Positions 3,947-51,542 of a DNA stretch of 64,000 nucleotides are shown here, one piece after another. The number at the start of each line of letters is the position of its first letter. Positions within the stretch are counted from its first letter, which is position 1. The notes under the pieces are model-generated. The model was given only the letters and a program-made list of their open reading frames with translations. It did no database searches and was not told the DNA's origin. Made by a program: the position numbers and the translations under genes. Location of the stretch: contig CAWCKJ010000004.1 in the NCBI GenBank assembly GCA_963796105.1, forward strand, positions 448,001-512,000, given 5' to 3'. This DNA is from a candidate division FCPU426 bacterium. GTDB taxonomy: Bacteria > Oederibacteriota > Muellerivitia > Muellerivitales > Muellerivitaceae.

Positions 3947-4118
3947 GCCACGGATTCAGGGGATGCACTCGGATAGAACACAGAAAAGAGGCTTTAAACT
4001 TATGTTTTTAAAATCCCATGTATCCCATGCATGCCAGCCCTCCCATAAGGCTATTCAAGGGGGCTGGTATCGTAGCAATCTCCATATAAGTTTTATGGCA
4101 GATTGGCACATCTGTGGC
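3947..4118 (+). repeat. Repeat shell A, copy 1 (27-bp imperfect terminal inverted repeats), containing element C
   Basis: GCCACGGATTCAGGGGATGCA...ATCCCATGTATCCCATGCA[C]TCTGTGGC; also shares about 70 bp of upstream flank with copies 3 and 4. Confidence 0.85.
4032..4108 (+). mobile_element. Double-hairpin mini-element C, copy 1
   Basis: CA|TGCCAGCC...GGCTGGTA TCG TAGCAATCT...AGATTGGCA|CA. Confidence 0.8.
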
Positions 4119-4267
4119 CAAAGTCTATTTTTGGAAAGTTGTGCTTCAAAACCCGTGTTTATTTGCGCCCATCAACATCAAAAGCGTTCTTTCGGTTCAT
4201 CTTCCATTTGCTATCATATAGCGGCCCCGGATTTATACGGGGAACCCCAATATTTGAGGTGAAAGCT

Positions 4268-4912
4268 ATGAAAAGAGTGCACATTTCCCAGATTAGGCGG
4301 AAATATTCCACCACCGGTTTGGTGGAAAAAGACGCTCCCCGGAATCCCCTGGTCCTTTTTGACCGGTGGTTCAAGGAAGCCTTGCAAGCCAATATCCTGG
4401 ACGTGAACGCCATGACCCTCGCCACCGTCTCCCCCCAGGGTAAGCCCAAAGTCCGGGCCATTCTCTTGAAGGGATTTGATAGTCGGGGTTTCGTTTTTTA
4501 CACCAATTACGAAAGCGACAAGGCACGGGACCTGGTCAAACATTCCCAGGTGAGCATGCTCTTCTTCTGGCCCCTCTTGAAACGGCAGGTCCGCGTTGAC
4601 GGCAGGGCCCAAAAAGTCCCGGCCAAGGAATCCGACCAATACTTTAAAATTCGGCCCCGCGACAGCCAGATAGGGGTCTGGGCTTCCCGCCAGAGCCGGG
4701 TGATCCCCGGCAGGGAGATTCTGGAAAAAAGCATGAGGCTCCTGGAAAGGAAATTCAGGAACAAACCCGTGCCCCGTCCCCCCCATTGGGGCGGCTACCG
4801 CGTGATTCCGGAAACATTCGAATTCTGGAAGGGCCGGCCCCACCGCCTGCACGACCGGATCCGCTACAACCTCCTGAAGGGAAAATGGAAAATAGACAGG
4901 CTCTCCCCCTGA
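4268..4912 (+). CDS. pdxH: Pyridoxamine 5'-phosphate oxidase (copy 1)
   Basis: NAMTLAT, R.ILLKG, FYTNYES.K, RQVRVDG, YF..RPR.SQIG.WAS.QS, RP.HWGGY, RLHDR, W.IDRLSP; start placed at ATG 4268. Confidence 0.95.
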   Translation: MKRVHISQIRRKYSTTGLVEKDAPRNPLVLFDRWFKEALQANILDVNAMTLATVSPQGKPKVRAILLKGFDSRGFVFYTNYESDKARDLVKHSQVSMLFFWPLLKRQVRVDGRAQKVPAKESDQYFKIRPRDSQIGVWASRQSRVIPGREILEKSMRLLERKFRNKPVPRPPHWGGYRVIPETFEFWKGRPHRLHDRIRYNLLKGKWKIDRLSP

Positions 4913-4913
4913 A

Positions 4914-5717
4914 ATGAAGGCGATCCCCAGGCAACCCAAGGGGCATCAGGCCCCTTCCCCCCCCGATCCCCAGGCCGTCTCCCAAATGAGGCGGGAATAC
5001 AACCCGTCGGCCCAAAACAGCTGGGGAAACCCCATGAAGGCCGTCCGGTTTTACAAATACTGGTTCCAGCAGGTCCTTCGGGTCATTTCGGTCATGAAGC
5101 ACGAGTACAACACCAGGGGCCTCACCGAGAAATCCGCTTCCGCCGATCCCTTCGAACTGTTCCGGATTTGGTTCGAGGAGGCTGTGCGTTCCAAGGTGCT
5201 GGACCCCAACGCCATGACGCTGGGCACCCTCGGGAAAAATTCCAGCCCGGCCCTTCGGACGGTGCTCCTGAAGGGTTTCGATCCCTCGGGTTTCGTTTTC
5301 TACACGAACTACGAGAGCCAAAAGGGGAGGGAAATCGACCGTAAGGGCTCGGCCTGCCTCCTTTTTTATTGGCCCACCCTGGTGAGGCAGGTTCGCATCG
5401 ACGGCAGGGTCCAAAAGGTCTCGGCGGCGGAATCGGACGAGTATTTCCAGAGCAGGCCCAGGGGAAGCCAACTTTCCGCTTGGGCCTCCAGGCAAAGCAG
5501 GAGCGTCCCTGGAAGGGAAACCCTGGAGAAGCAAATGGCGGCCTTTGAGAGGAAATTCAAGGGAAAACCCGTGCCAAGGCCTCCCCATTGGGGGGGGTAC
5601 CGCCTTGTCCCTCATCGCTTTGAGTTTTGGAACGGCCGTCCCAACCGCCTCCACGACCGTTTGTGTTACACGAAAAGTTCTTCCGGCAAGTGGTTTCGGG
5701 AACGGCTTTCGCCGTAA
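4914..5717 (+). CDS. pdxH: Pyridoxamine 5'-phosphate oxidase (copy 2) with N-terminal extension
   Basis: Same complete motif set; begins 1 nt after the copy 1 stop. Confidence 0.93.
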   Translation: MKAIPRQPKGHQAPSPPDPQAVSQMRREYNPSAQNSWGNPMKAVRFYKYWFQQVLRVISVMKHEYNTRGLTEKSASADPFELFRIWFEEAVRSKVLDPNAMTLGTLGKNSSPALRTVLLKGFDPSGFVFYTNYESQKGREIDRKGSACLLFYWPTLVRQVRIDGRVQKVSAAESDEYFQSRPRGSQLSAWASRQSRSVPGRETLEKQMAAFERKFKGKPVPRPPHWGGYRLVPHRFEFWNGRPNRLHDRLCYTKSSSGKWFRERLSP

Positions 5718-5864
5718 AATCTGATCAGTAACTTTTAAAGAACGCAAACAAAATTGTTTCTTTAAACTGTGGGGAATCGCACCGAAGTAAGTTGTTGTTA
5801 GGTTTACGCCATTAAAGAATTGATGTTTCACCCGATTGTTCCCTTGTGGTTCTGAAAGAACCTG

Positions 5865-5938
5865 TGCCGATCTTATATGAAAAACATAATGAGATCGGTA
5901 CGATACCAGCCTCATTGAAGTTCTATTGAAGGCTGGCA
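5865..5938 (-). mobile_element. Double-hairpin mini-element C, copy 2
   Basis: TG|TGCCGATC...GGCTGGCA|TG; empty allele of the host repeat at 14617-14652. Confidence 0.8.
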
Positions 5939-5968
5939 TGTGGTGAAACTTGATTTTAGTTAGAAATT

Positions 5969-7380
5969 CACTGCTGTCCTAGATAAACCTATTTGTCTTT
6001 GAACCTCCCAGGAAAACAAGCGATTTAGGACAGGCTCGTGAATTTTCTGGGATAAGCCCCCCTCTTTCGTCCTGATGCTGTCCAAATTAAGAATGTATTA
6101 ATTCCATCTGCTTTTCCAAGGGTTCCAGTCTCGCCACTAGGAACGGTGCATCCAACCAGGCCCACAAATCACGATAGGTCAACAGGTTCATCCGTAGCAT
6201 GGCAGCCAAGTGGGATAAACTCCAGGCGATCCGGCTCTTCAATTGAAGGAACTTCAACAGTAGCATGGCAATCAATGCTGTCCAAATCTGCGTCTGAACG
6301 GCATTCTCAGTGGTACCCACAAAAGTTTTTACCCGGAGGTTCTGCTTGAGAGCCTTGAAAAACAACTCGATCTGCCAACGTTCCTTGTAAATGGCACCCA
6401 CCGTCGAGGCGGCAAAACCCATGTGGTTGGTCAGGAACACCAACTCCCGCTTCTGGTCTTCGTCCCATACCACCACCCGTCGCATCTCTTTAGGGTAGGC
6501 TTCATGTGACCGAAACGTCGTCAACCGTATCACCTGGTCCTTCAGGACGTTGCCCGTTTTCGGAACCGTCAGGCTTTTCACCACCTCGTAGGCCATGTTG
6601 ATCTTGGCCCGGGTCACCCACCACACGCCTTGGAATGTCCATCGGGCCAGAAGAAAGAAATCCACATACCCCCGATCCATCACCACGATTGAATCCACTG
6701 GAAAATCGAGCTTTTGGGCCACCTTCACGTCATGCGTGCCTCCCTCCGTTACGAGTCCCCAGCAGGGCAAGTACCCCTGATGGTCCAGCAGAAGATGGAG
6801 TTTGATGGCCCCTTTGGTTCTACGGAATTTCGCCCAGTCGAACACTGACAAACAAAGGTCGATGGTGCTGGAATCCAGGCTATAAAGAGGATTTTTAAAC
6901 CTGAATTTTCTTTTTGAGGTGGCCGCCAACAACTGGCACTTCGATAATAAATGGTAAAAAAGCTTTTGTTGAACCCGCCAAGAACGCTTGGTGTTGGCAT
7001 AGGCCAAGGTGGATTTAGTGGGAGCTTTGCAAAGACCCAAGTGGGTCAATTTCCCAAGGGCCGTACTGAGGCCGCCACAGATTTCCCTCAAGGAATGGGC
7101 TGCTCCCATCTGGCAGAAAAGCATGGAAACAAACTGATCCCAGCAACTGAATCCCTTGGAGTGCTTTTCGGCTTCAATCTCTCGCACGATTCGCTCAAAA
7201 GCGGTTCGGTCTACGAGTTTCAACACTTGGGCAAATAGACTGGTTGGTGGTACCATAAAAAAGCGCCTCCGTATGTTTGAAGTAGCGACGGCTGGTAACC
7301 GTTGCTTTGGGCTGTCATCAAACCCAATTCTACTTCAATCGGAGGCGTCTTTTTTTAGGCCTTTATTTAGGACAAGAGTG
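5969..7380 (-). mobile_element. Complete IS4-family insertion sequence, 1412 bp
   Basis: Terminal inverted repeats CACTGCTGTCCTAGATAAA / CACTCTTGTCCTAAATAAA; 9-bp target duplication TTAGAAATT at 5960-5968 and 7381-7389. Confidence 0.93.
6087..7256 (-). CDS. IS4-family DDE transposase (DUF4372-like N-terminus)
   Basis: LDSSTI, KLH, MDRGY and the YKERWQIELFFKALKQ (YREK) signature. Confidence 0.95.
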   Translation of the reverse strand: MVPPTSLFAQVLKLVDRTAFERIVREIEAEKHSKGFSCWDQFVSMLFCQMGAAHSLREICGGLSTALGKLTHLGLCKAPTKSTLAYANTKRSWRVQQKLFYHLLSKCQLLAATSKRKFRFKNPLYSLDSSTIDLCLSVFDWAKFRRTKGAIKLHLLLDHQGYLPCWGLVTEGGTHDVKVAQKLDFPVDSIVVMDRGYVDFFLLARWTFQGVWWVTRAKINMAYEVVKSLTVPKTGNVLKDQVIRLTTFRSHEAYPKEMRRVVVWDEDQKRELVFLTNHMGFAASTVGAIYKERWQIELFFKALKQNLRVKTFVGTTENAVQTQIWTALIAMLLLKFLQLKSRIAWSLSHLAAMLRMNLLTYRDLWAWLDAPFLVARLEPLEKQMELIHS

Positions 7381-7423
7381 TTAGAAATTCTAATGTTAGT
7401 CATGAGTCTGAATTAGGAAGCCA

Positions 7424-9994
7424 ATGGAACAGTCTCAAACCAGAACCAAGGTCATGCAAACCCTGGGGATCCTCCTTCCCCTGCTCCTCTTTTACGCCGC
7501 CCTCTGGGTCCTGCGCCGGGAAATCCGGGCCAGCCACTACCAGGAAGTCCTTCAATACCTCAAGCAGATTCCCGACCGGAGTTTCCTCCTGGCGTTCCTG
7601 GCCTCCTTGGGAAGCTACCTGGCCCTGACCTTTTATGACGCGTTGGGTCTCAAGCACATTGGAAAAAAACTCTCCTATGCCCGCACCGCCGTGACTTCCT
7701 TCATCGCTTATTCCTTCAGCCACAACATCGGCGCTTCCCTCCTGACGGGGGGCAGCGTGCGCTACAGGCTTTATTCCGCCTGGGGCCTGAACGCGGAGGA
7801 AACCGCCAATGTCCTCCTGGTTTGCGGCATGACTTTCTGGGCGGGATTCATGACCATGGGGGCCGTCTTCTTTTTCCTCCAGCCCCCCGACCTGCCCCCG
7901 AATATCCATTTGCCGTTCAACTCAGTCTTCTCCGCCGGCGTCTTCTGCCTGGCCGTGATCTCCTTCTACCTGCTCATGTGCGCCCTTTTCAAGAAAACCA
8001 TCAGGATTTGGAAATGGTCCTTCCCCACCCCTTCCCTGGGAATCGCCCTGGGCCAGATGGCGGCGGGATGCATGGATTGGACCTGCTCCGGCCTGGCCCT
8101 GTTCCTCCTCCTGCCTGCCTCCTCCGTGTCTTTTCCCTCCTTCATGGCGATTTATTTGCTGGCCCAATTCGTCGGCTTCGCCAGCCAAGTGCCGGGCGGC
8201 CTGGGAATCCTGGAAACCATCATTGTGATACTTCTTTCCCCCGTTCTTCACGCGCCTGACATCTTGGGAGCCATGCTGGCCTTCCGGCTGGTTTATTACC
8301 TCATTCCATTCGTCCTGGGCTTGACGCTCTTCTCCGGAAACGAGATCATCCGCAATAAGCAGGGTTTCAAGCGCGCCCTGCAGATCCTCAACCGCTGGGC
8401 CCCCGATTTCGCGCCCCACGTCTTTTCCGTCCTCTTGTTCCTTTGCGGGGCCCTGGTCCTTTACTCGAACGCCTCCCCGGAGTCCCCCCGTCAGATGGCC
8501 TGGCTCTCGGAATACCTCCCTCTTCCCTTCCTGGAATCCTCCCACTTCCTGGTGGGCCTCGTGGGGGCCCTCTTGATGGTGGCGGCCCGCGGCCTCCAGC
8601 AGAAACTGGAAGGGGCCTACACTCTTTCCCTGATTCTCCTGGGCGCCGGCCTCCTTGGATGCCTCTTCAAGGGCTTCGATTACCAGGAGGCCCTCGTCCT
8701 GCTCATCCTCTTCGGGCTCCTGCTTCCGACCCGGGCCTATTTCCCGAGAAAATCATCCCTCATCCAGCAGCGTTATCCCCCCCTCTGGGTGGCTGCGGTC
8801 CTATTCGTCTGGCTGGGCTGTATCTGGGTGGGAGTCTTTAATTACCGCTACATCGAGGACTACTCCAGCGACCTTTGGACCACCTTCGCCTTGGACGAGG
8901 ACGCCGCGAGGTTCCTGAGATCCAACCTGGGCACGGTGATGACCCTTCTTATATTTTCCCTGGTGGCCCTGTTCTCCCCCTCCCAGCCGGAAACGGAATT
9001 CCCGAACCCTTCCGATCTTTCCAAAACCCTGGGTCCCATCGGGAAATCCCGGCGTTCCTATCCGCACCTGGCCCTCCTCGGGGACAAGGCCCTTCTCTTC
9101 AATAAAAAAGGGGATTCTTTCCTGATGTACGCCATCGAGGGAAAATGCTGGACCGCCTTGGGCGACCCGGTGGGCGGCGCGAAAGAGGGGGAGGAACTGA
9201 CCCAAAAGTTCCGCGAGCTTTGCCGGAGGAAAAAAGCCTGGGCCCTCTTTTACCTGGTGGATAAGGACCATTTCCAGTTCTACCTGGACATGGGCATGAC
9301 GGTCCTGAAAATCGGCGAGGAAGCCAGGGTATCCTTGGATAAATACGACCCCGACACCTCCCTTCCCCCCGACTTGAGGGAAACCCGGCAAAGACTGGCG
9401 GGGAACGAGGACTATTCCTTCGAGGTCCTGGAACAGGGATCGGATAAAGTTCCCTGGGAGGAACTGAAAGCCGTGTCCGAGAGCTGGCTGAGCCGCAACA
9501 AGACCCGCGAGAAGGGTTTTTCCATGGGATTCTTCCAGAAGGAATACCTGGAGAAATTTCCACTGGCCCTCCTCCGGGAAGAGGGCCGGGTGACGGCCTT
9601 CGCCAACCTCCTGCCTGCCAATGGAAAGGTTGAGATAGCGGTGGATTTGCTGAGGTCTTCCTCGGATGCCGGCCCGGTCTTGGAGGATTACCTACTCACG
9701 GAAACCATGGTTTGGGCCAAGGAGAAGGGATACCGCTGGTTCAACCTGGGGACGGCCTCCTTGATCGACCTGGAGGAAAGCCCCCTGGCCCCCTTCAAAG
9801 CCCAGATGACCGGCATGTTCTCCCCTCACGTGGAAGGGCCGGCCATGGGCGACATCCGCAAGGGAATGGGGCGGTTCAGCCCTGAATGGGTCCCCAAGTA
9901 CCTGGCGACCTCCAGCAACCTGCCCCTGTCCGTGGCCTTCGCCAATATCCATTCCTTGATCGCCCGCGGCAACCGGATCCGTTTAAAAAAATAA
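7424..9994 (+). CDS. mprF: MprF-like aminoacyl-phosphatidylglycerol flippase/synthase
   Basis: About 14 TM segments with GGSVRYRLY and VPGGLGILE; C-terminal domain with GDK, LGDPVG, KIGEEA, EKGFSMG, DLLR. Confidence 0.88.
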   Translation: MEQSQTRTKVMQTLGILLPLLLFYAALWVLRREIRASHYQEVLQYLKQIPDRSFLLAFLASLGSYLALTFYDALGLKHIGKKLSYARTAVTSFIAYSFSHNIGASLLTGGSVRYRLYSAWGLNAEETANVLLVCGMTFWAGFMTMGAVFFFLQPPDLPPNIHLPFNSVFSAGVFCLAVISFYLLMCALFKKTIRIWKWSFPTPSLGIALGQMAAGCMDWTCSGLALFLLLPASSVSFPSFMAIYLLAQFVGFASQVPGGLGILETIIVILLSPVLHAPDILGAMLAFRLVYYLIPFVLGLTLFSGNEIIRNKQGFKRALQILNRWAPDFAPHVFSVLLFLCGALVLYSNASPESPRQMAWLSEYLPLPFLESSHFLVGLVGALLMVAARGLQQKLEGAYTLSLILLGAGLLGCLFKGFDYQEALVLLILFGLLLPTRAYFPRKSSLIQQRYPPLWVAAVLFVWLGCIWVGVFNYRYIEDYSSDLWTTFALDEDAARFLRSNLGTVMTLLIFSLVALFSPSQPETEFPNPSDLSKTLGPIGKSRRSYPHLALLGDKALLFNKKGDSFLMYAIEGKCWTALGDPVGGAKEGEELTQKFRELCRRKKAWALFYLVDKDHFQFYLDMGMTVLKIGEEARVSLDKYDPDTSLPPDLRETRQRLAGNEDYSFEVLEQGSDKVPWEELKAVSESWLSRNKTREKGFSMGFFQKEYLEKFPLALLREEGRVTAFANLLPANGKVEIAVDLLRSSSDAGPVLEDYLLTETMVWAKEKGYRWFNLGTASLIDLEESPLAPFKAQMTGMFSPHVEGPAMGDIRKGMGRFSPEWVPKYLATSSNLPLSVAFANIHSLIARGNRIRLKK

Positions 9995-10028
9995 AAGCCG
10001 TCCTAATTAAACAAAAGTCCAGTCATTT

Positions 10029-10326
10029 GCCATGGATTCAGGGGATGCAGGGGATAAAAAATGAAAAATGTAAATTTTTCAATTCAAAAAGGTTTCAGAT
10101 CATGACAAGAGCAATGCTCTTGCGCCCAATTGGGCGTTGTGGTCATGCCAGCCTTCCGTAAAGCTTTTAATGTGGCTGGCATGGTACCGATCTCTTTATA
10201 TTTTTATGGATGATCGGTACAAGTCTGAGGACCGTGGAAAAATTCATTTTTCCATCGGCCGTTAGCTGGACCATAGAACATGATCGAAATGCGCTTTAAA
10301 TCCCATGAATCCCATGTATCCGTGGC
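10029..10326 (+). repeat. Repeat shell A, copy 2, containing module B (10098-10285, inverted relative to copies 3 and 4), which contains element C
   Basis: Terminal GCCATGGATTCAGGGGATGCAGGGGAT and ATCCCATGAATCCCATGTATCCGTGGC. Confidence 0.85.
10146..10219 (+). mobile_element. Double-hairpin mini-element C, copy 3
   Basis: CA|TGCCAGCC...GGCTGGCA TGG TACCGATC...GATCGGTA|CA; absent from module B in copies 3 and 4. Confidence 0.8.
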
Positions 10327-10378
10327 TAGAGAGTGTTTTAGATAGGTGTATAAACAAATATCACAAATCGGAATTCCC

Positions 10379-11041
10379 ATGAAAACCCCTCAGAATCAAA
10401 ATCGAACCAACCAAAATATTTTTAATTGGATTTCCCTACAGCGTCACCCTCAAACGGTCCTTGTTTTATTTCTTTTCATTCTCCTGGCGGGGTTCTTTTC
10501 CGGCTGTGCCCCAAGCCGGTATGAGTTGGGCGAGACGGAAGAGGCGGCATCGCCCGATGAGGCCATCCACAACGCGGAGGAGTTCCTCAGGACCCGCCCC
10601 AACTGGAAGGTGGATTGTTCCCACTTCGTGCTGGCTTGCTACCATTCCAGGAGCATGAACGCCTTCCTGAACCGGCGCAAATACCACCATAATTTGGTGT
10701 ACGACTTGAATTATTTCCTGACCCAGCGAAAGACCCGGCGCAAGAGGGCCGCGGATATCCAGCCTGGCGACATCCTCATATTCAACAAGACCTATGACAT
10801 CAACCATGACGGGCGGATCGATGACAGGGACACTTTCACCCACACGGGGATCGTGGAGAATTTTCAGGACCGGGTGGTGACCTATATCGACGCATCGGAA
10901 TCCCGGAAACCCCCTCGCCTTCACCGGAGGCGTTTCAGCTTTTGGGGCGACAAATACAATGAAACCGTGGCCAGGGACCCCGCCACCGGCAGGAAAATCC
11001 ACGCCAGGGAAACTTTTTTCGCGGCTTATGGCCCGCCTTGA
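10379..11041 (+). CDS. NlpC/P60 (CHAP-like) cysteine peptidase lipoprotein
   Basis: Lipobox FSGC; VDCSHFV, PGDILIF, HTGIV. Confidence 0.75.
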   Translation: MKTPQNQNRTNQNIFNWISLQRHPQTVLVLFLFILLAGFFSGCAPSRYELGETEEAASPDEAIHNAEEFLRTRPNWKVDCSHFVLACYHSRSMNAFLNRRKYHHNLVYDLNYFLTQRKTRRKRAADIQPGDILIFNKTYDINHDGRIDDRDTFTHTGIVENFQDRVVTYIDASESRKPPRLHRRRFSFWGDKYNETVARDPATGRKIHARETFFAAYGPP

Positions 11042-11049
11042 GGAATGAA

Positions 11050-11511
11050 ATGCTCCACGTCGTGCTGATCGAGCCGGAAATCCCATGGAATACCGGAAAC
11101 ATTGGCCGCACCTGCCTGGGGGCGGGCGCCCAACTGCATTTGGTGGGCCGGTTGGGATTTCACCTGGACAACAAGGAAGTCGAGCGGGCGGGGTTGGATT
11201 ATTGGGACAAGGTCCCCCTCCACCGGCACACGACCTGGGAGGATTTCCTCAAGTCCATGCCTCCCCAGGCTCCCCTCTTTTTCTTTTCCACAAAAGGAAC
11301 GAAGACTTTCTGGGAGGCGGATTTTTCGAAAGGTGGATACCTGATTTTCGGGAAGGAAACCGCGGGATTCCCGAAGAGATTCTATGAGGACTACAAGAAA
11401 AAGCTGTACCGCATCCCCCAGAAAGACGAGTCCATCCGAAGCTTGAACCTATCCACCTCGGTGGGAATCGTCCTTTATGAGGCCCTCCGTCAAACCCACT
11501 CCCCGCGGTAA
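11050..11511 (+). CDS. trmL: tRNA (cytidine/uridine-34-2'-O)-methyltransferase
   Basis: PEIPWNTGNIGRTC, RAGLDYW, FGKETAG, RSLNLS. Confidence 0.93.
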   Translation: MLHVVLIEPEIPWNTGNIGRTCLGAGAQLHLVGRLGFHLDNKEVERAGLDYWDKVPLHRHTTWEDFLKSMPPQAPLFFFSTKGTKTFWEADFSKGGYLIFGKETAGFPKRFYEDYKKKLYRIPQKDESIRSLNLSTSVGIVLYEALRQTHSPR

Positions 11512-11540
11512 AGAAAAGCTTTTTTCCGCCGATTTCAACG

Positions 11541-14458: not shown

Positions 14459-14674
14459 GGAAATTGATCCTTATAGTCCGCCGGGGGAATTAACCGTGAT
14501 TTCGGCCCGGGTTTAAGAAATGTAACTTCTTGCAAAACTAAAGCCCAACCCAATTGGTCCTTCTCACGGCATAGGAACCCAGTTTAAATCCTCTGAAAAT
14601 TGAGGTTTTTTTCCTACTGTGCCCCTGTGGTTCCAAAAGAACCTGTGGTGGGTTTGGATTTTTATTTGTTACTT

Positions 14675-17540: not shown

Positions 17541-17683
17541 GTCATTGTGCCGATCAACCTAAAAAAAATTTTTAGAGATCGGTACGATACCGACCTCTTT
17601 AACAGTTTTATGGAAGGTCGGCATGCGAGGAATGCCCCGCGAATAGCGGGGCGACAATGACGAAGCAACCCCAGTTTAAATAA
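17541..17683 (+). repeat. Repeat E (GTCATTGCGAG...GAAGCAACCCC) carrying element C
   Basis: Matches 57518-57582 once element C and one TG are removed. Confidence 0.85.
17548..17623 (-). mobile_element. Double-hairpin mini-element C, copy 4
   Basis: TG|TGCCGATC...GATCGGTA CGA TACCGACC...GGTCGGCA|TG. Confidence 0.8.
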
Positions 17684-31544: not shown

Positions 31545-31574
31545 AACTTCCAACCAAAACCTAATTCCACCACA

Positions 31575-31648
31575 TGCCAGCCTTCAATAAAACTTTTAAT
31601 GGGGCTGGTATTGTACCGATCTCAATATCACTTAATGGGAGATCGGCA
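31575..31648 (+). mobile_element. Double-hairpin mini-element C, copy 5
   Basis: CA|TGCCAGCC...GGCTGGTA TTG TACCGATCT...AGATCGGCA|CA inside CACCACAGGGACAC repeat. Confidence 0.82.
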
Positions 31649-31869
31649 CAGGGACACAAAGACACCGCTAAAAATTTTTAAGAGATTGTCCCTATCGGCC
31701 AAAAAACGCCTTTGGGCCGCCACTTGGCCGGGGCCTAAAACCAGCCGGTCACTGGCTCTTCATTTGAAGGACGGAGCTCTGTGACCCTGTGGAAAAAAAT
31801 TTGTTAAATGCTAAAAATAATAAGCTGGGTCCCTGGGTCTCTGAGGTGAGATTGGGTTTGTGGGAGCTT

Positions 31870-43729: not shown

Positions 43730-44682
43730 TGCCTCAAGATTCCATGACCAAAAATCCAAACTTTTTCCGGAACCGGAAAGGGATCGGAATAAAGGCTTTT
43801 TCCCGGATGACCCTGGTTCTTTTGGCGGGAGCGCTCAATCTGGTAACCGTAGAATCAAGCCTGGCTTTTTTTGAGCCGAGGCCCAAGGAACCCCTTCCGG
43901 TGTTAGAGCCGATCCTGGGAGCCTGGGGCGACTCCGGGGGTCAAAACGTCGATGGGCTGATCGAGTGCGGCGACTACCTATTCAACAACGCCGAAAGAAG
44001 CCGAAGCTTCTCATCGGGAAAAACCCGCGGAAGGCAAAAAGTCGTCATCCGCTATTCCAAAAATTCCTCCCCCTCCGGGAAGAAAAATTATGATTACCCT
44101 ACCCTCTTGCAGGCGGCCGAATATTGGAGGGAAGCCCTCCGGGTTTCCCCGGGCCGCTTGGACGTTTATTATAAATTAGCCAATCTTTACCAGATCATGG
44201 GGGATTTCGAGTCCCAATACGCTGTCCTCGTCCAGTCCTTCCAATACGGCTCAAGGCATCCCGGCAAATTGCGGTGGCTTCAAAACCAAAATCTTCCGGA
44301 CCTGCCCAAAAGGTTCATCCCCGATTCGGTGCAGGAATACGCATCCTATTACTTGGACCAGGGCGAGGCGCGAAACCTCGAAAAGGCCCGCCGCCTTTCC
44401 AGGCTGACCATGACCTTCTTCCCGAACCATCCCGCCCCCTACAACTGGCTGGCGGCCTATTTCGCCCAGGTAAAAGATTGGCCCCACTCCTTGAAATACC
44501 TCCTTATCGCCAGCCAGAAAGATCCCCAGAACAGCCTGGTGCTTTGCAACATCGGCAATATCCTGGCGGAATTGGGCAAGAAAAGGGAGGCCAGGATCTT
44601 TTACGCGAAAGTGGTGGCCTTGAACAACGATCCCTGGAGTTCGAGGAATGCCCGCAGGGCCCTAACGACTTCGAAAGACTAA
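43726..44682 (+). CDS. Secreted TPR protein
   Basis: Signal-like hydrophobic segment; several TPR units. Confidence 0.7.
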   Translation: MMPQDSMTKNPNFFRNRKGIGIKAFSRMTLVLLAGALNLVTVESSLAFFEPRPKEPLPVLEPILGAWGDSGGQNVDGLIECGDYLFNNAERSRSFSSGKTRGRQKVVIRYSKNSSPSGKKNYDYPTLLQAAEYWREALRVSPGRLDVYYKLANLYQIMGDFESQYAVLVQSFQYGSRHPGKLRWLQNQNLPDLPKRFIPDSVQEYASYYLDQGEARNLEKARRLSRLTMTFFPNHPAPYNWLAAYFAQVKDWPHSLKYLLIASQKDPQNSLVLCNIGNILAELGKKREARIFYAKVVALNNDPWSSRNARRALTTSKD

Positions 44683-44757
44683 CCCACTCCTTTCAAACAC
44701 TCCATTAATTGGCTCCCACCCCTTGATTCCCGGGGCAGGTTTCTGTAATTTTGTTAG

Positions 44758-45432
44758 ATGAAAACTATTATCAAGGAACAAAGAAAAAGAAACTCATTGG
44801 CGCCCGCCTTGAATTCCTCCCAAAAAATCCGTGAGCTCATTTGCGAGTTATGCCGCCATTTTTACCAGAAGGGATGGGCTTCCGGCACCGGCGGGGGAAT
44901 TTCCATCAAGAGCGGGGATCGGATTTACATGGCCCCCAGCGCCGTTCCGAAAGAGCGGCTCCAGCCCGAGGACATCTTTGTTCTCGATGACGAAGGAATC
45001 CCCTTGGAAGAGCCGGGGCGGGGCCTGACCCTTTCCCAATGCGCCCCTCTTTTCATGCACGCCTATCAAATCCGCGGGGCCGGAGCGGTTCTCCACAGCC
45101 ACTCCGTGAACGCCGTCCTGGCGACCCTTTTGTTCGACAAGGAATTCAAAATCAAGAACATGGAAATGCAGAAAGGCATCGAGGGTTACGGGGCCTTCGA
45201 CACGGTGTCTGTTCCCATCATCGAGAACACCGCCTTCGAGCGGGACCTGGCGGATTCCCTGGGGGAGGCCATCCGGAAGAACCCGAAGACGCGCGCGATC
45301 CTGGTCCGGGGGCATGGGGTTTATGTCTGGGGCCGCGATTGGAAACAAGCCAAGACCCACGCCGAATGTTATGACTATCTTTTCGAGACAGCCGAAAGGA
45401 TGAAACAATTGGGGATAACTTCAAATACGTAA
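44758..45432 (+). CDS. mtnB: Methylthioribulose-1-phosphate dehydratase (eukaryotic APIP/Mde1-like)
   Basis: GTGGGISIK, SQCAPLF, GAGAVLHSHS, VPIIENT, HGVYVWG, ECYDYLF. Confidence 0.93.
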   Translation: MKTIIKEQRKRNSLAPALNSSQKIRELICELCRHFYQKGWASGTGGGISIKSGDRIYMAPSAVPKERLQPEDIFVLDDEGIPLEEPGRGLTLSQCAPLFMHAYQIRGAGAVLHSHSVNAVLATLLFDKEFKIKNMEMQKGIEGYGAFDTVSVPIIENTAFERDLADSLGEAIRKNPKTRAILVRGHGVYVWGRDWKQAKTHAECYDYLFETAERMKQLGITSNT

Positions 45433-45536
45433 TTTTAGATTTTAAATTCTAAGTTTTAAATGAATGAACATTTTCTTCCTGATTTATGTAAGAAAATGAA
45501 CAACAATTCAAAATTTAAAATTCACAATTTAAAATT
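45431..45536. repeat. Inverted arrays of AT-rich heptamers (similar array at 50876-50907)
   Basis: TTTTAGA TTTTAAA TTCTAAG TTTTAAA ... ATTCAAA ATTTAAA ATTCACA ATTTAAA. Confidence 0.6.
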
Positions 45537-45559
45537 TTCATTTCGAGGGGGAGGCTGTT

Positions 45560-46024
45560 ATGAAAGCTAATTGGCTGGAGACTGAAAAAAACATTACGGT
45601 GGAGGAACTCCGTTCCCACGGTGTCACTTACGAGCGGTTCGAGACTGATGAGGCTGTTTACAAGGCTCCTCTCGAACAAATCATGCGGGAGCGGGGCTAT
45701 GTGACCATGGACCAGGTGAAGATGTGGCCAGAAATGCCCAACTTCGACGCCTTGAACCAGAAATTCCTCGGGGAGCACCTGCACACCGACGACGAGGTCC
45801 GCTTCGTGCTGGCCGGGGCCGGGGTGTTCGAAATCCGGAGCCTGGAGGACAAATGGATGAAAATCACGGTGGAACCATGCGATTTCATCCTGGTCCCTGC
45901 CAACCGCTTCCACCGCTTTTACCTCACTTCCGCGAAAAACATCCATTGCGTGCGGTTGTTCAAGGACTCCTCGGGCTGGACTCCCCTTTACCGCAGGGAT
46001 CTCGAGGCAACTGCGGCGAAATAA
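45560..46024 (+). CDS. mtnD: Acireductone dioxygenase (ARD cupin)
   Basis: EHLHTDDEVR, G.G.F, VPA..FHRF; adjacent to mtnB. Confidence 0.92.
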   Translation: MKANWLETEKNITVEELRSHGVTYERFETDEAVYKAPLEQIMRERGYVTMDQVKMWPEMPNFDALNQKFLGEHLHTDDEVRFVLAGAGVFEIRSLEDKWMKITVEPCDFILVPANRFHRFYLTSAKNIHCVRLFKDSSGWTPLYRRDLEATAAK

Positions 46025-46124
46025 AACCGATCTCAGCGTTTATCCAACCCCCTCTTAGGTTTATAATCGACCCGAAAAGTGTTCTGGGATTTTCCCGCCT
46101 TTCAATCATTCCGTGGAGATTTCC

Positions 46125-46661
46125 ATGGCCGATTACATCCTGAAGCCGGGAAACAAGCGCTTGCCCTCCGCGACTTTTCTCCTGGAGGAAATACACAAAC
46201 GCGGAATTCCCGTTGAAATCAACGTCACAGGCACGGTTGACCAATGGGAAGCCATCCGGTTTTTCGAGCCAGGCCCCCCGGAAATCGAGTGTTTCGCGAC
46301 TTTTGACCAGGAAAACCCACGATTCATATTGACTGTCCCAAAGGACTCCCCTGAGTTATCCTCCGACCTTCGTCTGCTTTTAGCCCATATCTTTTTATCG
46401 GAAGTCGGCGGCACCGTGACCGATTCTTCAACTGGAGAAAATTATGACGCCCCCAAAATCGCCGCCAGGGTCAGGCAGTTCCAGCCTTCCAAAAGCGGAA
46501 TCAGCGAATCCCTTTGGCTGATTTTTTCCTGGGCGGTACTGCCCTTGGCCGCCCTGGCTTACTTCGCGGTTCCCCACCAACTCAGGATCCTGGTGATCGG
46601 GGTCGCGGTCCTGGCTTTTTTCAGCGCAGTCGGACAAACCTATTCCAAACTCAAGTCCTGA
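46125..46661 (+). CDS. Hypothetical protein with two C-terminal TM helices
   Basis: GGAG RBS; stop overlaps the queG start. Confidence 0.6.
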   Translation: MADYILKPGNKRLPSATFLLEEIHKRGIPVEINVTGTVDQWEAIRFFEPGPPEIECFATFDQENPRFILTVPKDSPELSSDLRLLLAHIFLSEVGGTVTDSSTGENYDAPKIAARVRQFQPSKSGISESLWLIFSWAVLPLAALAYFAVPHQLRILVIGVAVLAFFSAVGQTYSKLKS

Positions 46662-47575
46662 TGGACGTTCTCGGGGTCACCCAAAAACTCAAGGAAAAAT
46701 CCTATTCGCTCGGTTTTGAGCTTGCTGGGGCCGCTCGCGCGGTTCCCTCTCCCGATTACTCTTACTTCCTCGAATGGCTGGGCCGCGGTTACGCCGGGGA
46801 AATGGGTTATTTGGAAAGGCGCAAGGCTGAGCGGGGAAACCCGCAGTCGCTCCTCCCGGGCGCGAAATCCATTTTCTGCCTGGCCCTCAGTTATAACCCG
46901 AAGCCCGAGCATTATCCCCTTCTCGAAAAGCATCCCATCTCCTGCTACGCCTGGGGGAAGGACTACCACCTAGTCCTGGGTGAGAAGTTGGAAACCCTCA
47001 GCCAATATCTTTCCCGGGAACTGGTTCCCGGGGCCAAGGCCAAATGGTACGTGGACACAAGCCCTCTCTTGGAACGAAGCTACGCGGCCCAGGCTGGTTT
47101 AGGTTGGATCGGCAAAAACACCTTGCTCCTGAACAAGGACTTCGGGTCCTTCCTGTTCCTGGGGGAAATCCTGACGGACGCGGAGCTCTCTTACGATGAG
47201 CCTCCCGCCAACCTTTGCAAAACCTGCACATTCTGCATGGACGCCTGCCCCGTGGGAGCGCTGGAGGAGCCCGGGGTTTTGAACGCGACCAAGTGCATCA
47301 GCTACCTCACCCTGGAGCACCGGTCCGAGTTGCTCAAGAGCAGGGACCTTCACGGATACCTGGCGGGCTGCGACCTGTGCCAGACGGTTTGTCCTTATAA
47401 CGCCAACGCACCCGCCGGACGGGAGGAATCCTTCAAACCGAGGGGGGAAATTCTTGAACTGACCAGCGAAAAGGCAAGTCAAATGGGTGAAAAAGAATTC
47501 AAAAATTTTACGAAAGAATCCGCTTTGGAAAGAATTAAATTCCCAATGTGGATGAGAAACGCCCAAACACAATAA
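46661..47575 (+). CDS. queG: Epoxyqueuosine reductase
   Basis: YAWGKDYH, VDT.P.LER, AGLGWIGKN, CxxCxxCxxxCP, CISY.T.E, GCD.CQ.VCP.N. Confidence 0.93.
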   Translation: MDVLGVTQKLKEKSYSLGFELAGAARAVPSPDYSYFLEWLGRGYAGEMGYLERRKAERGNPQSLLPGAKSIFCLALSYNPKPEHYPLLEKHPISCYAWGKDYHLVLGEKLETLSQYLSRELVPGAKAKWYVDTSPLLERSYAAQAGLGWIGKNTLLLNKDFGSFLFLGEILTDAELSYDEPPANLCKTCTFCMDACPVGALEEPGVLNATKCISYLTLEHRSELLKSRDLHGYLAGCDLCQTVCPYNANAPAGREESFKPRGEILELTSEKASQMGEKEFKNFTKESALERIKFPMWMRNAQTQ

Positions 47576-48355
47576 TCAAACCGGTAATGGAATCTTCGGC
47601 ACCAGGCTCAAGTCCACTTGGCCCATGCCGGGCGCTCCGGCTTCACGGACTTTTTCGAAGAAGTTATCCGCTTTTTCCCTCAGTTCTTTCAAATCAACAC
47701 CCATGTAATGGGCGGGCAGGCGGTTCCATTTATCGCAAGCTTTCTCATAAAGACCCATGGCGCCGGCGAAATTGCCTTTCTGGTAGTGGTTCAAGGCGAT
47801 GGCCAGTTGGATGATCCCCTGGTAATGCAGGTGATCCATTCCCTCGGACCTCATCCAGATATCCTCGACCATCTCATGGCACTCGAAATATTCACCCTTG
47901 TTGAAAAGCCTGATTCCTTCCAGGTATTCGTGGGCATAAGGGTTTTTGTTTTCCTCTTCCCAGTTTTTCTCGGACAATTCCCGTATCAGGGTTTGGTCGG
48001 CGTCAGGAAAGTTGAATTTGAAAAGTTCATTTGGAAGCGCCCAGGCGAAATCGGCGACCTCGATTTTCTTGGGCTCGCCCCCGACGTGCCGACAAAGAAA
48101 AATGTTGAGCCTCACGGTCCGCGCGGGATAACGGTAATTGACGATCTTGTAGAACTTCAGGACCTCCACCTCGATATCCAGTTCTTCCTTGATCTCGCGG
48201 ACGATGCATTCCCGAAGGGATTCCGTCGGCTCTTTTTTACCGCCCGGGAGCTCCCAGAAACCCCCGAAGGAATCCTCCGGCTTTCGCTGGGTGATGAGGT
48301 ACCGGCCGTCCTTATAAATCAGGGCCGCGCCTACTTCCAAGGGTGTTTGGTTCAC
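47576..48355 (-). CDS. MutT-like Nudix hydrolase fused to a DUF309 domain
   Basis: WELPGGK.EPTE......REIKEEL Nudix box; C-terminal FN.GEYFECHE..E..W...QGIIQ.A. Confidence 0.85.
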   Translation of the reverse strand: MNQTPLEVGAALIYKDGRYLITQRKPEDSFGGFWELPGGKKEPTESLRECIVREIKEELDIEVEVLKFYKIVNYRYPARTVRLNIFLCRHVGGEPKKIEVADFAWALPNELFKFNFPDADQTLIRELSEKNWEEENKNPYAHEYLEGIRLFNKGEYFECHEMVEDIWMRSEGMDHLHYQGIIQLAIALNHYQKGNFAGAMGLYEKACDKWNRLPAHYMGVDLKELREKADNFFEKVREAGAPGMGQVDLSLVPKIPLPV

Positions 48356-48726
48356 TGGTTCCTCTTCCGCTTGTTTTCCTGGCGGCGTTTCCCGCGCCTC
48401 TTCTTACGCGCAAAAGACATTTTCGCCTTTTCGGAAGGCTGTGGCAAACCTTCCCCGGCGATAAAGGTGGTCTTGCGTTCCTTGGGCAGGCTCTTGACTT
48501 GGTATTCCCTCCTCAGGGCCGAAGAATAATCAGCCTGTGGCTCCTGAAAAACCAGCCTGACCGGGGAATGAGTGGCTGTATATTTGCTGCCTTTTCCGGA
48601 GTTATGGGCCTCGATGCGTTTCTCCACGTCCTTGGCGATGCCCGTGTAATAGGACCCGTCGGCGCACTCGGCGATGTAAAGGCTCCAAGATCCCTCGGGT
48701 TTCCGCTTCAAGAATTCCTCCATCAA
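48352..48726 (-). CDS. GIY-YIG nuclease (UPF0213/YhbQ-like) with basic C-terminal tail
   Basis: LYIAECADGSYYTGI, R...HN.GKGSKYT, ALRRE..VK. Confidence 0.88.
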   Translation of the reverse strand: MMEEFLKRKPEGSWSLYIAECADGSYYTGIAKDVEKRIEAHNSGKGSKYTATHSPVRLVFQEPQADYSSALRREYQVKSLPKERKTTFIAGEGLPQPSEKAKMSFARKKRRGKRRQENKRKRNQ

Positions 48727-48744
48727 AATTAAAAATAATCTCTC

Positions 48745-48956
48745 GCCACAGATTCATGGGATTCATGGGATTCAACAAGTCTAGATCGTGACAAAGGCTT
48801 TGCCTTTGCGCCCGCTGGGCGATATGGCCCTGCCTGCGGACCGTGGAAAAATTAATTTTTCCATTGGCCGTCGGCTGAGCCATAGAACACGATCGATAAA
48901 CTTTTCATGCAAAATCTAATTTCTTTTCCATCCCCTGCATCCCCTGAATCCGTGGC
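48745..48956 (-). repeat. Repeat shell A, copy 3, with module B (48784-48894)
   Basis: Near-identical reverse complement of 55190-55401; shared flank extends to about 49025. Confidence 0.92.
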
Positions 48957-49046
48957 AAAGGACTTAGTTTTGCTTAACGCCTTTTAGAACTAAAAAGCCT
49001 GATTTTATTTATCTTTGTTCCCTAGATTTTGTTTGGTTTGAAACAT

Positions 49047-49880
49047 TTAATCTACGAATACGATATCACCGATAGGCGGCACTAGCTGTTTCTCGGCGCC
49101 CTCGCCCAGGAACAGCCGGATGGCCTTTTTTCCTTCCTCTCCCATATCCACCGTTCTCTCGTTGACCCACATACCGACGAAACGGTCGGCCACGTCCTTG
49201 GAAAGCCCCCGACCGAAGGCCAGGGCGTAATCCAGCGCCTCATTCCGGTGCGCCAAGGAATACTCGATGGATTTTTTCAGGTGTTTCGAGACCTTCTTTT
49301 TCAAATCATCCCCCAGGTCCTTTCGGATGGCGTTCAAACCCATCGGCAAAGGCAGGGCGGTCTTTTGGTACCACCATTCCCCCAGTTCCAGCACCATTTG
49401 AAGTCCCTTTTCCTTGTATGTCAGCTGGCCCTCATGAATGAGCAAACCAGCGTCCACCTTTCCCTCAGAAACCAGGTCCATGATGCGCTCAAAATCCACT
49501 ACGACTTCCTTGAACTCGGGCAAGCGGAGCCTTAAGGCCAGGTAGGCGCTGGTCAGCTTTCCTGGCACCGCGATGGTTTTACCCCTCAAATGCTCAATGG
49601 TCAGAGCCGTTTTAGCCACCACCATAGGACCGTAGTTCTTGCCGATGCTTCCCCCGTGAGTGAGGATGTCGTACTTGTCCTTTACGTAGGCGTAGGCGTG
49701 CGCCGAAAGGGCCGTGACTTCCATTCGGCCTTCCCTGGCCCAATCGTTGAGAGTCTGGATATCCTTGAGCACATGTTCGTATTCAACATCCTCGGTGTCG
49801 ATTTTTCCCTTGGCCAGCCCGTAAAACATGAAGGCGTCATCCGAGTCCGGGCTGTGCGCCAGTTTAATTTTAATATTCAT
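49047..49880 (-). CDS. mqnD: MqnD-like 1,4-dihydroxy-6-naphthoate synthase (futalosine menaquinone pathway)
   Basis: HSPDSDDAFMFY, DIQTLN, YGP, IAVPG.LTSA, LLIHEGQLTY, LPLPMG. Confidence 0.85.
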   Translation of the reverse strand: MNIKIKLAHSPDSDDAFMFYGLAKGKIDTEDVEYEHVLKDIQTLNDWAREGRMEVTALSAHAYAYVKDKYDILTHGGSIGKNYGPMVVAKTALTIEHLRGKTIAVPGKLTSAYLALRLRLPEFKEVVVDFERIMDLVSEGKVDAGLLIHEGQLTYKEKGLQMVLELGEWWYQKTALPLPMGLNAIRKDLGDDLKKKVSKHLKKSIEYSLAHRNEALDYALAFGRGLSKDVADRFVGMWVNERTVDMGEEGKKAIRLFLGEGAEKQLVPPIGDIVFVD

Positions 49881-50066
49881 TGTATAACCCCATTTGTAAT
49901 CTAATTTCCCGTTAATGATTAAAAATCAACAAAACCAAAGGTCCGCCGCAAAACCATCGCGCCGCGCCGATGTATTGTTAACGAGTGAATCTTGAGATTT
50001 TTTCCTTCCTGTGGCTCTGTGGTCCTCGAAGAGGACTTGTGGTTAACCTTGGTTTTAGTTGATGAT

Positions 50067-50789
50067 TTAAATATGATTCAAAATCGCGTCCAGCACCTTT
50101 TCCTTCTCCAGAAAATTCGAAAAAACAAAATCGGGTTTCTCGGCCTTCAATTGCTCCGCCGTGAAGGGCCCTGTGGCAACCGCCAAAGTACGGACCCCAA
50201 GGTGGCGCCCGCAATGAATGTCGTTGGGCGTGTCCCCGATGATGACGATTTCTTTCTCCGAAAACTTATGGCCGTACTTTTTCTCAGCCGCGTCCAAAGC
50301 CCGCTGGGGCAGTTCCGAGCGCTGGAGGGCGTTATCCCCGAAGGCCCCGAAGGAAAAATAGCCGTTCAAGCCCTGGGCCTCCAGCTTGATGCGCGCTCCT
50401 TCCTCAAAATTGCCCGTGAGAAGCCCCAATATTACCTCGCTTCTCTTGTGGAGTTCCGTCAAAAGTTCCCTCACCCCCGGCTTGAGGGTCACCATGCCAG
50501 GATCGCCTTCCACGATTCCCCTCAGGAAACCCAGGTACTTGTCCCTAATCGCGGGTGTCAAGGCTTCAATGCGTTGGGGTTCGACGGAATTCTGGCTCAG
50601 GATCTCAAAGATGATCTGGGTGTCGGTTTTTCCGCCGGGACGGTATTTGGAGGTATCAATGACGCGGGGATCACCGGCTTCCGCGAATGCCCGCTCCATC
50701 GCGTCCTTGAAGGGGTCTTCCCAGGCCTTGCGCGAGGTGGTAAGAAGGGTACCGTCGATGTCGAACAGGACAAGCCTGGTGGGTTTCAT
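50067..50789 (-). CDS. HAD-superfamily hydrolase
   Basis: FDIDGTLL, LLTGN, IGDTPND. Confidence 0.88.
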   Translation of the reverse strand: MKPTRLVLFDIDGTLLTTSRKAWEDPFKDAMERAFAEAGDPRVIDTSKYRPGGKTDTQIIFEILSQNSVEPQRIEALTPAIRDKYLGFLRGIVEGDPGMVTLKPGVRELLTELHKRSEVILGLLTGNFEEGARIKLEAQGLNGYFSFGAFGDNALQRSELPQRALDAAEKKYGHKFSEKEIVIIGDTPNDIHCGRHLGVRTLAVATGPFTAEQLKAEKPDFVFSNFLEKEKVLDAILNHI

Positions 50790-50905
50790 GAAGGCGTAAA
50801 TCCGAGATGGCCGATTTGTTTACTGCGGCTCGTGTTTTGAAAAACAATCATTTTCATATTGTGAAAATCACGATCATTCAAAATTAAAAATTTAAAATTC
50901 ATAAT

Positions 50906-51457
50906 TTATTTTTCGATGGTCCCGTCTGAGAAGACGATCATGGTGGGATACCAAATCTGGCGCATTTCCTCCAATTTGAGTTTCTCGAAAGTCGCGAGGC
51001 CTTTCTTGGTGAAGCGTTCGATGCCGGCTTTCCAGTCCACCCCGGCTGTCTGACCCGGCGGAACCGCGGTAGTGGATTCCAATGTCCAATCGCAGATGTA
51101 CTCCCCGAACAAAGTGGTGAACCGCAAGACGCCGCGCACGCCGTGGATTTCCTTTCCTGTCATATTCTTGAGGGCGCATTTCAGGACGATTTTCTTCCGG
51201 TTCTGGTCGAATATTCCGCCGACCGACCCGATCAGGTCATCTCCCTTGTCATAAGCCCAAATCTTCAACAGCTTCGCCAGCTTGGCCGACGGTTGGGGAG
51301 AGGAGGACGCGCCGAAAGAGGGGCTATTCATATTCATGGCGGTAATAAAGGAGGACAGAATGAGGACAAGAGAAAGAGTTTTTTTCCAACCCAATTCACA
51401 CAGTTTCATATTGGATAACCTCCCTTTTAAAGAATAAAAACTATTTACAAAATTCAT
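50906..51457 (-). CDS. Secreted hypothetical protein (start uncertain; ATG at about 51409 likely)
   Basis: Signal-like segment, beta-rich domain ending IVFSDGT. Confidence 0.55.
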   Translation of the reverse strand: MNFVNSFYSLKGRLSNMKLCELGWKKTLSLVLILSSFITAMNMNSPSFGASSSPQPSAKLAKLLKIWAYDKGDDLIGSVGGIFDQNRKKIVLKCALKNMTGKEIHGVRGVLRFTTLFGEYICDWTLESTTAVPPGQTAGVDWKAGIERFTKKGLATFEKLKLEEMRQIWYPTMIVFSDGTIEK

Positions 51458-51468
51458 GGTTCACCACA

Positions 51469-51542
51469 TTCCAGCCCTCAAAAAAGCTTTTATTGAGGCT
51501 GGTATAGTAACGATCTCAATATTTCTTTATGGAAGATCGGCA
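51469..51542 (+). mobile_element. Double-hairpin mini-element C, copy 6 (degenerate ends)
   Basis: CA|TTCCAGCC...GGCTGGTA TAG TAACGATCT...AGATCGGCA|CG inside CACCACGGAGAC repeat. Confidence 0.75.

Follow-up and report, generated by a model that had tools for sequence, protein, structure and literature searches.

Six twin-hairpin copies in the window

The window analyzed here is a 64,000-nucleotide (nt) stretch of DNA from a candidate division FCPU426 bacterium of the family Muellerivitaceae (GenBank assembly GCA_963796105.1, contig CAWCKJ010000004.1), which corresponds to C4:448001-512000 of the source genome, here called G000. It holds six copies of a noncoding DNA unit of ∼75 to 76 nt, the twin-hairpin element, in which two hairpins of 35 to 38 nt lie on either side of a 3-nt junction and a 2-nt core bounds the unit on each side. 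An earlier note made from this sequence had described the six copies; all are present where it placed them, and each folds as two hairpins with a 3-nt spacer. It was also right that CA flanks both sides of five copies and that the sixth has CA on one side and CG on the other. The TGCC...GGCA ends that it reported apply in general but not to copy 3, which ends GGTA, or to copy 6, which begins TTCC.

Copy 1 (4031..4109, + strand) lies in the right arm of a repeat called shell A and has the junction TCG at 4070-4072; compared with the 4032-4108 of the earlier note, these coordinates take in one inner core base at either end, both of which are likely part of the element. Copy 2 (5864..5939, − strand; TCG at 5903-5901) and copy 5 (31574..31649, + strand; TTG at 31611-31613) are hosted by CACCAC-type repeats, copy 3 (10145..10220, + strand; TGG at 10182-10184) by a module B within a pair of shell A arms, and copy 4 (17547..17624, − strand; TCG at 17587-17585) by repeat E of family D11. 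All five have CA/CA cores. Copy 6 (51468..51543, + strand; TAG at 51505-51507) is the copy with CA/CG cores.

Counterparts of these sites without the element occur in the same window, as the earlier note had proposed for copies 1 to 4. The empty shell A right arm at 55374..55412 (+) corresponds to the site of copy 1 by alignment, and sequence reading gives an empty CACCAC-type repeat at 14617..14650 (−) for copy 2 and an empty repeat E at 57518..57594 (+) for copy 4. The proposal fails for copy 3: the homologous module B at 55257..55363 (−) is not an exact empty allele because its site reads CC, not CA, and a second module B at 48783..48889 (+) also has CC. For copy 5, we additionally found a matching empty site in a CACCAC-type arm (51580..51621, −). 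Two more shell A arms are unfilled: one, a second homolog of the copy 1 site, has AA at the core position (48731..48772, −), and the other, a right arm, has the core in its TA form (10295..10339, +).

Fold, junction, and core

An iterated profile (E ≤ 0.01) gave 192 nonoverlapping matches in the 4.98-Mb source genome and none in the reversed genome. Only 8 of the 192 overlap a gene called in this analysis, so the element is mostly intergenic. Structural parsing succeeded for 168 copies, and the 24 unparsed matches were dropped. The 2-nt cores are equal on both sides in 154 of the parsed copies (137 CA/CA, 13 CG/CG, and 4 TA/TA, one of these a misparse) and unequal in 14. The remaining 153 equal-core copies collapsed into 127 events and, after removal of 6 duplicate events, into 121 deduplicated sites. 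Tandem junctions of the form that the earlier note predicted for circles are present in 8 arrays of 2 to 8 units, in which neighboring units share single cores. In the 7-unit array at C2:112811-113343, units of two variants are interspersed (order, B B A B B A A); the array adjoins a transposase gene that we take, by eye, to be IS3-like. A second small element, with CAG...CTG ends, is inserted where the twin-hairpin element meets a TA repeat, and two 8-unit twin-hairpin arrays lie within copies of it (element and array sites at C2:103419, 120546, 154220, 161022, 161360, and 164618 and at C4:769568).

The hairpins are conserved as structures. Across 59 copies from G000 and its relatives, 91.3% of stem cells are paired, and 116 double-sided changes were counted against a shuffled mean of 46, a value reached in 0 of 500 shuffles, a control that is inflated by the relatedness of the copies. 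Slid registers are only 24 to 38% paired. Stem position 2 holds G·T or A·C in 121 of 134 unique copies in hairpin 1 and in 98 of 134 in hairpin 2. Because this non-Watson-Crick pair is conserved and covariation is confined within each hairpin, with none between the two element ends, the stem data suggest that the folded strand rather than the duplex is the form recognized. The loops are AT rich and 16 to 20 nt long. The foot of the hairpin reads A-T-N-G, A-C-N-G, or A-T-N-A, and a conserved GT[AG]G tetranucleotide was not found. Circles predicted to run from the A of one core to the C of the other fold as dumbbells for all six window copies (z, −3.7 to −7.3 versus mononucleotide shuffles), with the middle junction base bulged. 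Rfam at the gathering score gave no matches in the window and none on the element in three loci from relatives.

The ends read TG...CA with a 4-bp terminal inverted repeat, and the genome holds many multicopy transposase families, presumably IS1595, IS1380, IS21, IS3, and IS4, names that we assigned by eye. These features would suit a MITE (miniature inverted-repeat transposable element) mobilized by a DDE-type transposase, with a 2-bp target duplication. We consider this origin highly unlikely. The covariation runs within the hairpins and not between the ends, a duplication would not follow an internal junction in the way described below, and the cores are unequal in 17 of the 23 copies of the G004 set. 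The longer element with the same arms and core around an open reading frame (ORF) that the earlier note had proposed to look for was not found within 8 kb in G000. Classical MITEs are marked by inverted repeats of ≥10 bp at their termini and by a genuine duplication of the target, and neither was found.

The 3-nt junction instead tracks the core. For CA, CG, and TA cores alike, the third junction base is complementary to the first core base and the first junction base to the second core base. Among the 127 events, 109 combine CA with T-N-G, 12 combine CG with C-N-G, and 3 combine TA with T-N-A, leaving 3 exceptions, and thus the junction complements the core in 124. Cytosine at junction base 1 occurs in 12 of 13 CG events and in none of the 114 others (Fisher P = 6e-16, kinship ignored). 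The same pairing recurs in relatives, and the C of CG copies is seen in several lineages and three genera. In G001, CG/CG matches carry C-N-G in 4 of 5 cases (the fifth is T-C-G, a wobble), one further copy has C-N-G, and all four TA/TA matches have T-C-A; both copies from genus g11 combine a left CG core with CAG, and four copies from genus g4 combine the junction CTG with a right CG core. A quick tree that left the junction out (72 columns, with most forks weak) splits the CG copies into five or more separate groups, and the core requires 10 changes versus ∼26 when shuffled. At one G001 locus (L031), sister units occupy the same host end in its CG and its CA form and carry CAG and TAG, respectively, and sisters of this lineage are also found as CA/T-C-G/CG. 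Copy 6 of the window would similarly be a CA-type unit that entered a C|G site through a T·G wobble.

The plain CA duplication of the earlier note is therefore not supported: the core can also be CG or TA, as tracked by the internal junction, and the CA flanks are probably not a target duplication. Because the junction matches the insertion core and changes along with it, we propose that the element likely carries its own DNA guide.

Copies with mismatched cores bear on where the element would be cut. The G004 set comprises 23 copies, of which 2 are degenerate and 4 were reoriented or end corrected by hand. Eleven copies read CG/T-N-G/CA and two read CT/T-N-G/CA, in differing host flanks. Since the left core is CG or CT and the right core CA in differing hosts, the second base of the left core appears to travel with the element. 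Three further copies have the junction T-T-A with T on the left and A on the right. The homologous host of the L143 copy, beside L136/L137, reads T-A at the site, and only a cut that separates the two core bases would account for this. Throughout the set, the inner core bases drift and the outer, target-side bases still match the junction. The cut thus likely falls within the core, as C|A. With inner core bases owned by the element and outer ones by the target, the unit would run A...C and nothing would be duplicated. In the canonical lineages, the four single-mismatch classes are about equally frequent (3, 4, 4, and 4 copies), which counts against such a cut, and for this reason its position is drawn mainly from G004. 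A flank-blind parser run on loci from relatives mixed in misparses (7 matches in its reversed control), and its totals were not used.

Insertion sites and the proposed cycle

Of the 121 reconstructed empty sites, 109 had one or more spanning matches elsewhere and 98 had at least five, compared with 199 and 93 of 600 random intergenic CA sites and 211 and 111 of 600 motif-matched sites; a stricter 22-nt test of repeat hosts gave 90 of 127 versus 29 of 150 controls. The statement in the earlier note that the element always inserts into other repeats is thus borne out as strong enrichment but not as a rule, as 12 of the 121 sites have no match. The 121 events fall into 40 distinct site families, three of which hold 59 events, and the site in the right arm of shell A has 24 filled and 34 empty occurrences. 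A few host sites are insertion hot spots, and the core sequence is read, so a choice of target by structure alone, as the earlier note had suggested, is not supported. The target context (Y-R-C-A-K) resembles the element's own junction, and host-derived sequence reaches the 2-nt core on both sides. In predicted folds of the target, the core is about as unpaired as other CA sites and the flanks are more paired, a weak signal. Matches between loops and target flanks, as a bridge-like guide would require, were also sought and dismissed (best z, 2.3 of 8 tests). At locus L177 (G000 C4:588400-590000), a PDDEXK_3 gene, presumably of the type labeled GxxExxY, lies between shell A arms that each hold an element copy. 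The gene looks frameshifted near its start, and a tblastn search revealed no other copy.

In the three largest site families, how alike two elements are does not follow how alike their flanks are (rho, 0.13, 0.11, and 0.32; P, 0.06, 0.20, and 0.15), which argues for independent insertion, and the median likeness of elements within one site is only 0.71 to 0.86. We also counted toward independent insertion four G029 copies that are identical though their host right flanks are 87 to 97% alike. Together with 192 copies, stem covariation, and repeat-host enrichment, the proposal of a nonautonomous, mobile, structure-conserved element was borne out.

Based on these observations, we interpret the twin-hairpin unit as a nonautonomous element like the repetitive extragenic palindromes (REPs), with its own central DNA guide and moved as single-stranded DNA by an HUH-type enzyme, an interpretation to which we assign a probability of roughly 0.55. 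The starting point is the folded unit itself, two hairpins whose stems covary and keep a non-Watson-Crick pair at position 2. The central junction, which complements the core, likely serves as the guide. Folding is predicted to bring both cores to this one guide, and the register is that of a REP transposase: the G at the foot of hairpin 2 reads C, and the T two bases before it reads A. It is because of this shared register and this fold that we infer an HUH-type single-strand cycle. An HUH/Y1-type enzyme would likely cut single-stranded DNA at both C|A sites, releasing a circle predicted to be a closed dumbbell with one bulged base opposite the cut. To judge from the mixed-core copies, the unit would keep its inner core bases (A...C) and take the outer ones from the target. 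The circle would then insert at single-stranded C|A, with a few sites within other repeats used again and again, and insertion at the element's own end would yield tandem arrays. Mutation of the guide through G·T wobble intermediates could then retarget a lineage to C|G or T|A.

Characterized enzymes provide precedents for guide-directed cleavage. TnpA_Mb of Marinomonas is reported to cleave CT and CA, with CA selected by bases T2 and G4 of a GTAG that lies at the foot of the hairpin, and altering these guide bases is reported to shift the cleavage site (PMC8266576). For the Escherichia coli enzyme, G4 is reported to dictate the C 5′ of the REP break, and the authors consider coordinated cuts at both ends of bacterial interspersed mosaic elements (BIMEs) to lack a mechanism unless they are DNA mediated (PMC3479197, as far as its accessible text goes).

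Several results weigh against guide-directed, single-stranded movement of this element, and some suit a different history. The tetranucleotide is A/G-T-N-G and not GTAG; both variant cores, CG and TA, are transitions, the commonest mutations; and some copies (L145, L170, L171, and L124) obey no rule. No circle or excision of the element was observed; contigs of four read runs showed no joint across a copy, an uninformative result. No orientation bias with local GC skew or gene direction was seen (36/31 and 19/17), on contigs where skew is weak; IS200/IS605 elements prefer the lagging-strand template. Near-identical elements share a host class in 30 of 30 pairs, which a 2-nt guide leaves unexplained, and the nearest-neighbor element is in the same host class in 77 of 121 cases versus 24 expected. 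Host class needs 44 changes on the tree versus ∼72 when shuffled.

Such host sharing would be expected of a passenger that rarely entered each host repeat and then spread with it or by gene conversion, the junction-core match arising as the hairpins extended one pair into the flank and repair compensated. Pairing of the junction with the inner core bases is indeed seen, and the loops show no guide-like match to the flanks. Because five comparable orthologous spacers in G001 lack both element and host, comparing them yielded no orthologous filled/empty pair; the syntenic 80 kb of G001 has its own copies elsewhere. We nevertheless regard a passenger origin as rather unlikely, given 40 site families among 121 events, the low and flank-independent likeness of elements within a site, the tandem arrays that share single cores, and the G004 copies in which inner bases drift while outer target-side bases keep their junction match. 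Spread with the host or by conversion may have occurred on top of true insertion.

The guide-directed interpretation requires an enzyme, and the search for one supplied the other points against it. In keeping with the mover outside the window that the earlier note had inferred, we detected no Y1, IS110, or serine or tyrosine recombinase match within it. The Y1 genes of G000 are two IS200 copies and the TIRYT proteins, which have their own inverted repeats. PF01797 occurs in 23 of 31 family genomes, including both that lack the element, and was not found in 8 element-positive genomes, one of them 99% complete in 5 contigs. Among 30 sampled Y1 loci of these incomplete genomes, none had an element within ∼1.5 kb, the arrangement expected of a REPtron. 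No autonomous version with two long loops was found in G000; 6 rows (3 loci, both strands) with one long loop were read as degenerate copies pairing with neighboring copies. At seven metagenome tandem loci, no Y1 or recombinase was recognized by eye, and one transposase-like ORF was present.

Genes beside the G000 copies, read by eye, and beside 95 element loci included no recurring mobile enzyme. Y2 profiles had no match at E ≤ 0.1, two large serine recombinases were found and rejected as candidates, and an HUH-motif regular expression over the gene calls returned only TIRYT as plausible. Of 16 TIRYT loci, 5 have an element no more than 1.5 kb away, modestly above IS1595 (10/50) and all genes (442/4026), and the TIRYT-type Y1 proteins of G000 are the only local candidates. 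TIRYT paralogs are encoded at C2:159139, C2:98747, and C7:96204 and by a family of 312-aa proteins, and an IS200 TnpA is encoded at C7:20652. The HUH or REP-associated tyrosine transposase (RAYT) idea of the earlier note thus proved a better lead than IS110, but the cognate enzyme was not found. Its absence does not exclude a REP-class element, because loss of the RAYT with repeats left behind is described in E. coli in the accessible text of PMC3333891.

The same search bears on two other movers. An IS110/IS1111-type MITE, joined as a circle through its 2-nt core and aimed by a bridge RNA in trans, would explain an oriented 2-nt core, repeat targets, and tandem copies as reported for ISPpu9/MITEPpu9 in the accessible text of PMC12288879, and ISPpu10 too is said in the available part of its preprint to read a target stem-loop (bioRxiv 10.64898/2026.03.19.712850). 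However, of the 31 family genomes, 7 have IS110 (PF01548) and 29 have the element, the single G000 copy has an AG core with unrelated ends and subterminal repeats, and forty target families with a core that follows a cis junction would ill suit one trans guide. We therefore do not support IS110, one of the movers that the earlier note had in view, and judge such a MITE very unlikely. In G001 (L034), two IS110-family copies lie inside TIRYT inverted repeats at an AG core.

Alternatively, the element could offer a folded single-strand site to the host's Xer-like tyrosine recombinase, or to an integrase of the integron type, and so exploit that enzyme. The Xer-like protein is single copy in G000 (C3:368879-369814, L179) and present in 30 of 31 family genomes, matching a family-wide element, and the likeness of the target context to the element junction would also fit. 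We consider this extremely unlikely. Tyrosine recombinases use a 6- to 8-bp overlap, for which host sequence reaching the 2-nt core on both sides leaves no space, and the targets lack common binding arms. The Xer-like gene also occurs in element-free genomes, and the integron integrase profile TIGR02249 had no match over the cutoff.

Three further features lie in the window. A transposase gene with DUF4372 and DDE_Tnp_1 (6087-7256, −), ∼150 bp from copy 2, is absent at the orthologous place in G001. Two adjacent similar genes occupy 4103-5717, the first of which matches pyridoxamine 5′-phosphate oxidase families, and a tandem repeat with a 43-bp period lies at 62245-62459.

A family-wide element and its relation to known systems

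The covariance-model scan of relatives that the earlier note called for revealed a family-wide element, detected in 28 of 30 same-family genomes and, as a weak match, in 1 of 68 others. Counting G000, 29 of 31 family genomes carry it, and the model did not find it in family genomes G017 (97% complete) and G008 (85% complete). A strict pattern had matches in 16 of 30 genomes of the family and in none of 30 others, and the covariance-model scan yielded upward of 700 matches in the family, a lower bound. The collections of viral contigs, plasmids, and phages that we scanned gave no match, and at least 19 stretches matched in a genome-contig collection. As judged from these sequence matches, the element is confined to one uncultured family.

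Some copies recur beside genes. Diverged copies lie at the 3′ ends of tRNA-Arg and tRNA-Pro genes (G010 L119, G018 L124, and G020 L080), where the left arm of the element provides the terminal CCA of the tRNA; L119 has a CG core and the junction CAG. In three genera, a copy lies downstream of what we take, by eye, to be an mltG-like gene (L003 in G027, L071 in G028, and L073 in G018), which may reflect an old shared insertion or a repeated hot spot. Two metagenome contigs, L164 and L167, represent the same locus with two units and one unit, a difference that may be a real copy-number change or an assembly collapse.

Among known systems, the element most resembles REPs, BIMEs, and REPINs with TnpA_REP (RAYT) in being composed of intergenic imperfect hairpins that form dimers and tandem arrays. 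As with the REP of TnpA_Mb, a sequence at the 5′ hairpin foot complements a 2-nt site in the T2/G4-to-C|A register (accessible text of PMC8266576 and PMC3479197). REPs are known to form tail-to-tail dimers with partners separated by 1 to 2 bp and to occur as dimers within other palindromes (PMC3733652), and REPIN excision and tandem clusters are likewise known (PMC3116915). Unlike REPs, the element lacks the GTAG/GGAG tag, has one shared central guide that varies in nature with the core, and has cut sites abutting both hairpin feet, which give a fixed ∼76-nt unit. It also differs in its loops, in its restriction to one uncultured family, and in that no flanking RAYT gene was found beside it.

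With IS200/IS605 ends and their derivatives, the element shares two hairpins and DNA-DNA guide pairing and, as proposed here, a single-stranded circle and no true target duplication (PMC3333891 and PMC6006769, in their accessible parts). Those elements differ in having a guide at each end, 4- to 5-nt sites away from the hairpins, and a lagging-strand bias. The hairpins and ends of the G000 IS200 copies are unrelated to the element; shared ends with separate guides were not found. IS110 and MITEPpu9 likewise have a 2-nt core, repeat targets, minicircles, and tandem copies (PMC12288879, accessible text), but the IS110 guide is a trans-acting RNA, whereas here the matching bases lie in the element's DNA. 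Insertion of IS110 MITEs into REPs is known (PMC12288879, PMC3184786, and the ISPpu10 preprint, bioRxiv 10.64898/2026.03.19.712850, all as far as available). The TIRtrons and their TIRYT enzymes (TnpA_Y1 subclass 2.1, with Y1_Tnp and a DnaA-type helix-turn-helix), the only RAYT-like enzymes in G000, have their own GGGGTCAG inverted repeats, and the accessible part of the source describes no REP-like substrate for them (PMC6006769).

We conclude that the twin-hairpin element is real, a mobile repeat present across the family that behaves as a substrate of the REP type would but departs from REPs in that neither GTAG nor a REPtron was found. A bolder possibility, which we advance only tentatively as the less probable case, is that it represents a class of its own among minimal mobile DNAs, a ∼76-nt closed dumbbell in which one central guide would serve both excision and targeting, with natural single-base retargeting and an enzyme outside the Y1, Y2, IS110, and recombinase profiles. 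No published account of the element or of natural guide-core covariation was found in a literature search that covered few subscription journals.

The spread of REP-type repeats is still called poorly understood (PMC8266576), and guide-directed site choice by REP enzymes is shown only in vitro, as far as the accessible parts of PMC8266576 and PMC3479197 indicate. The exact ends, the natural guide variants that match different cores in several lineages, and the apparent wobble intermediates therefore make these genomes a putative record of guide-directed insertion, and the element family is a ready substrate panel for studying it. If the enzyme is found, few programmable systems for DNA insertion would be smaller than this 76-nt self-guided single-strand integration unit.

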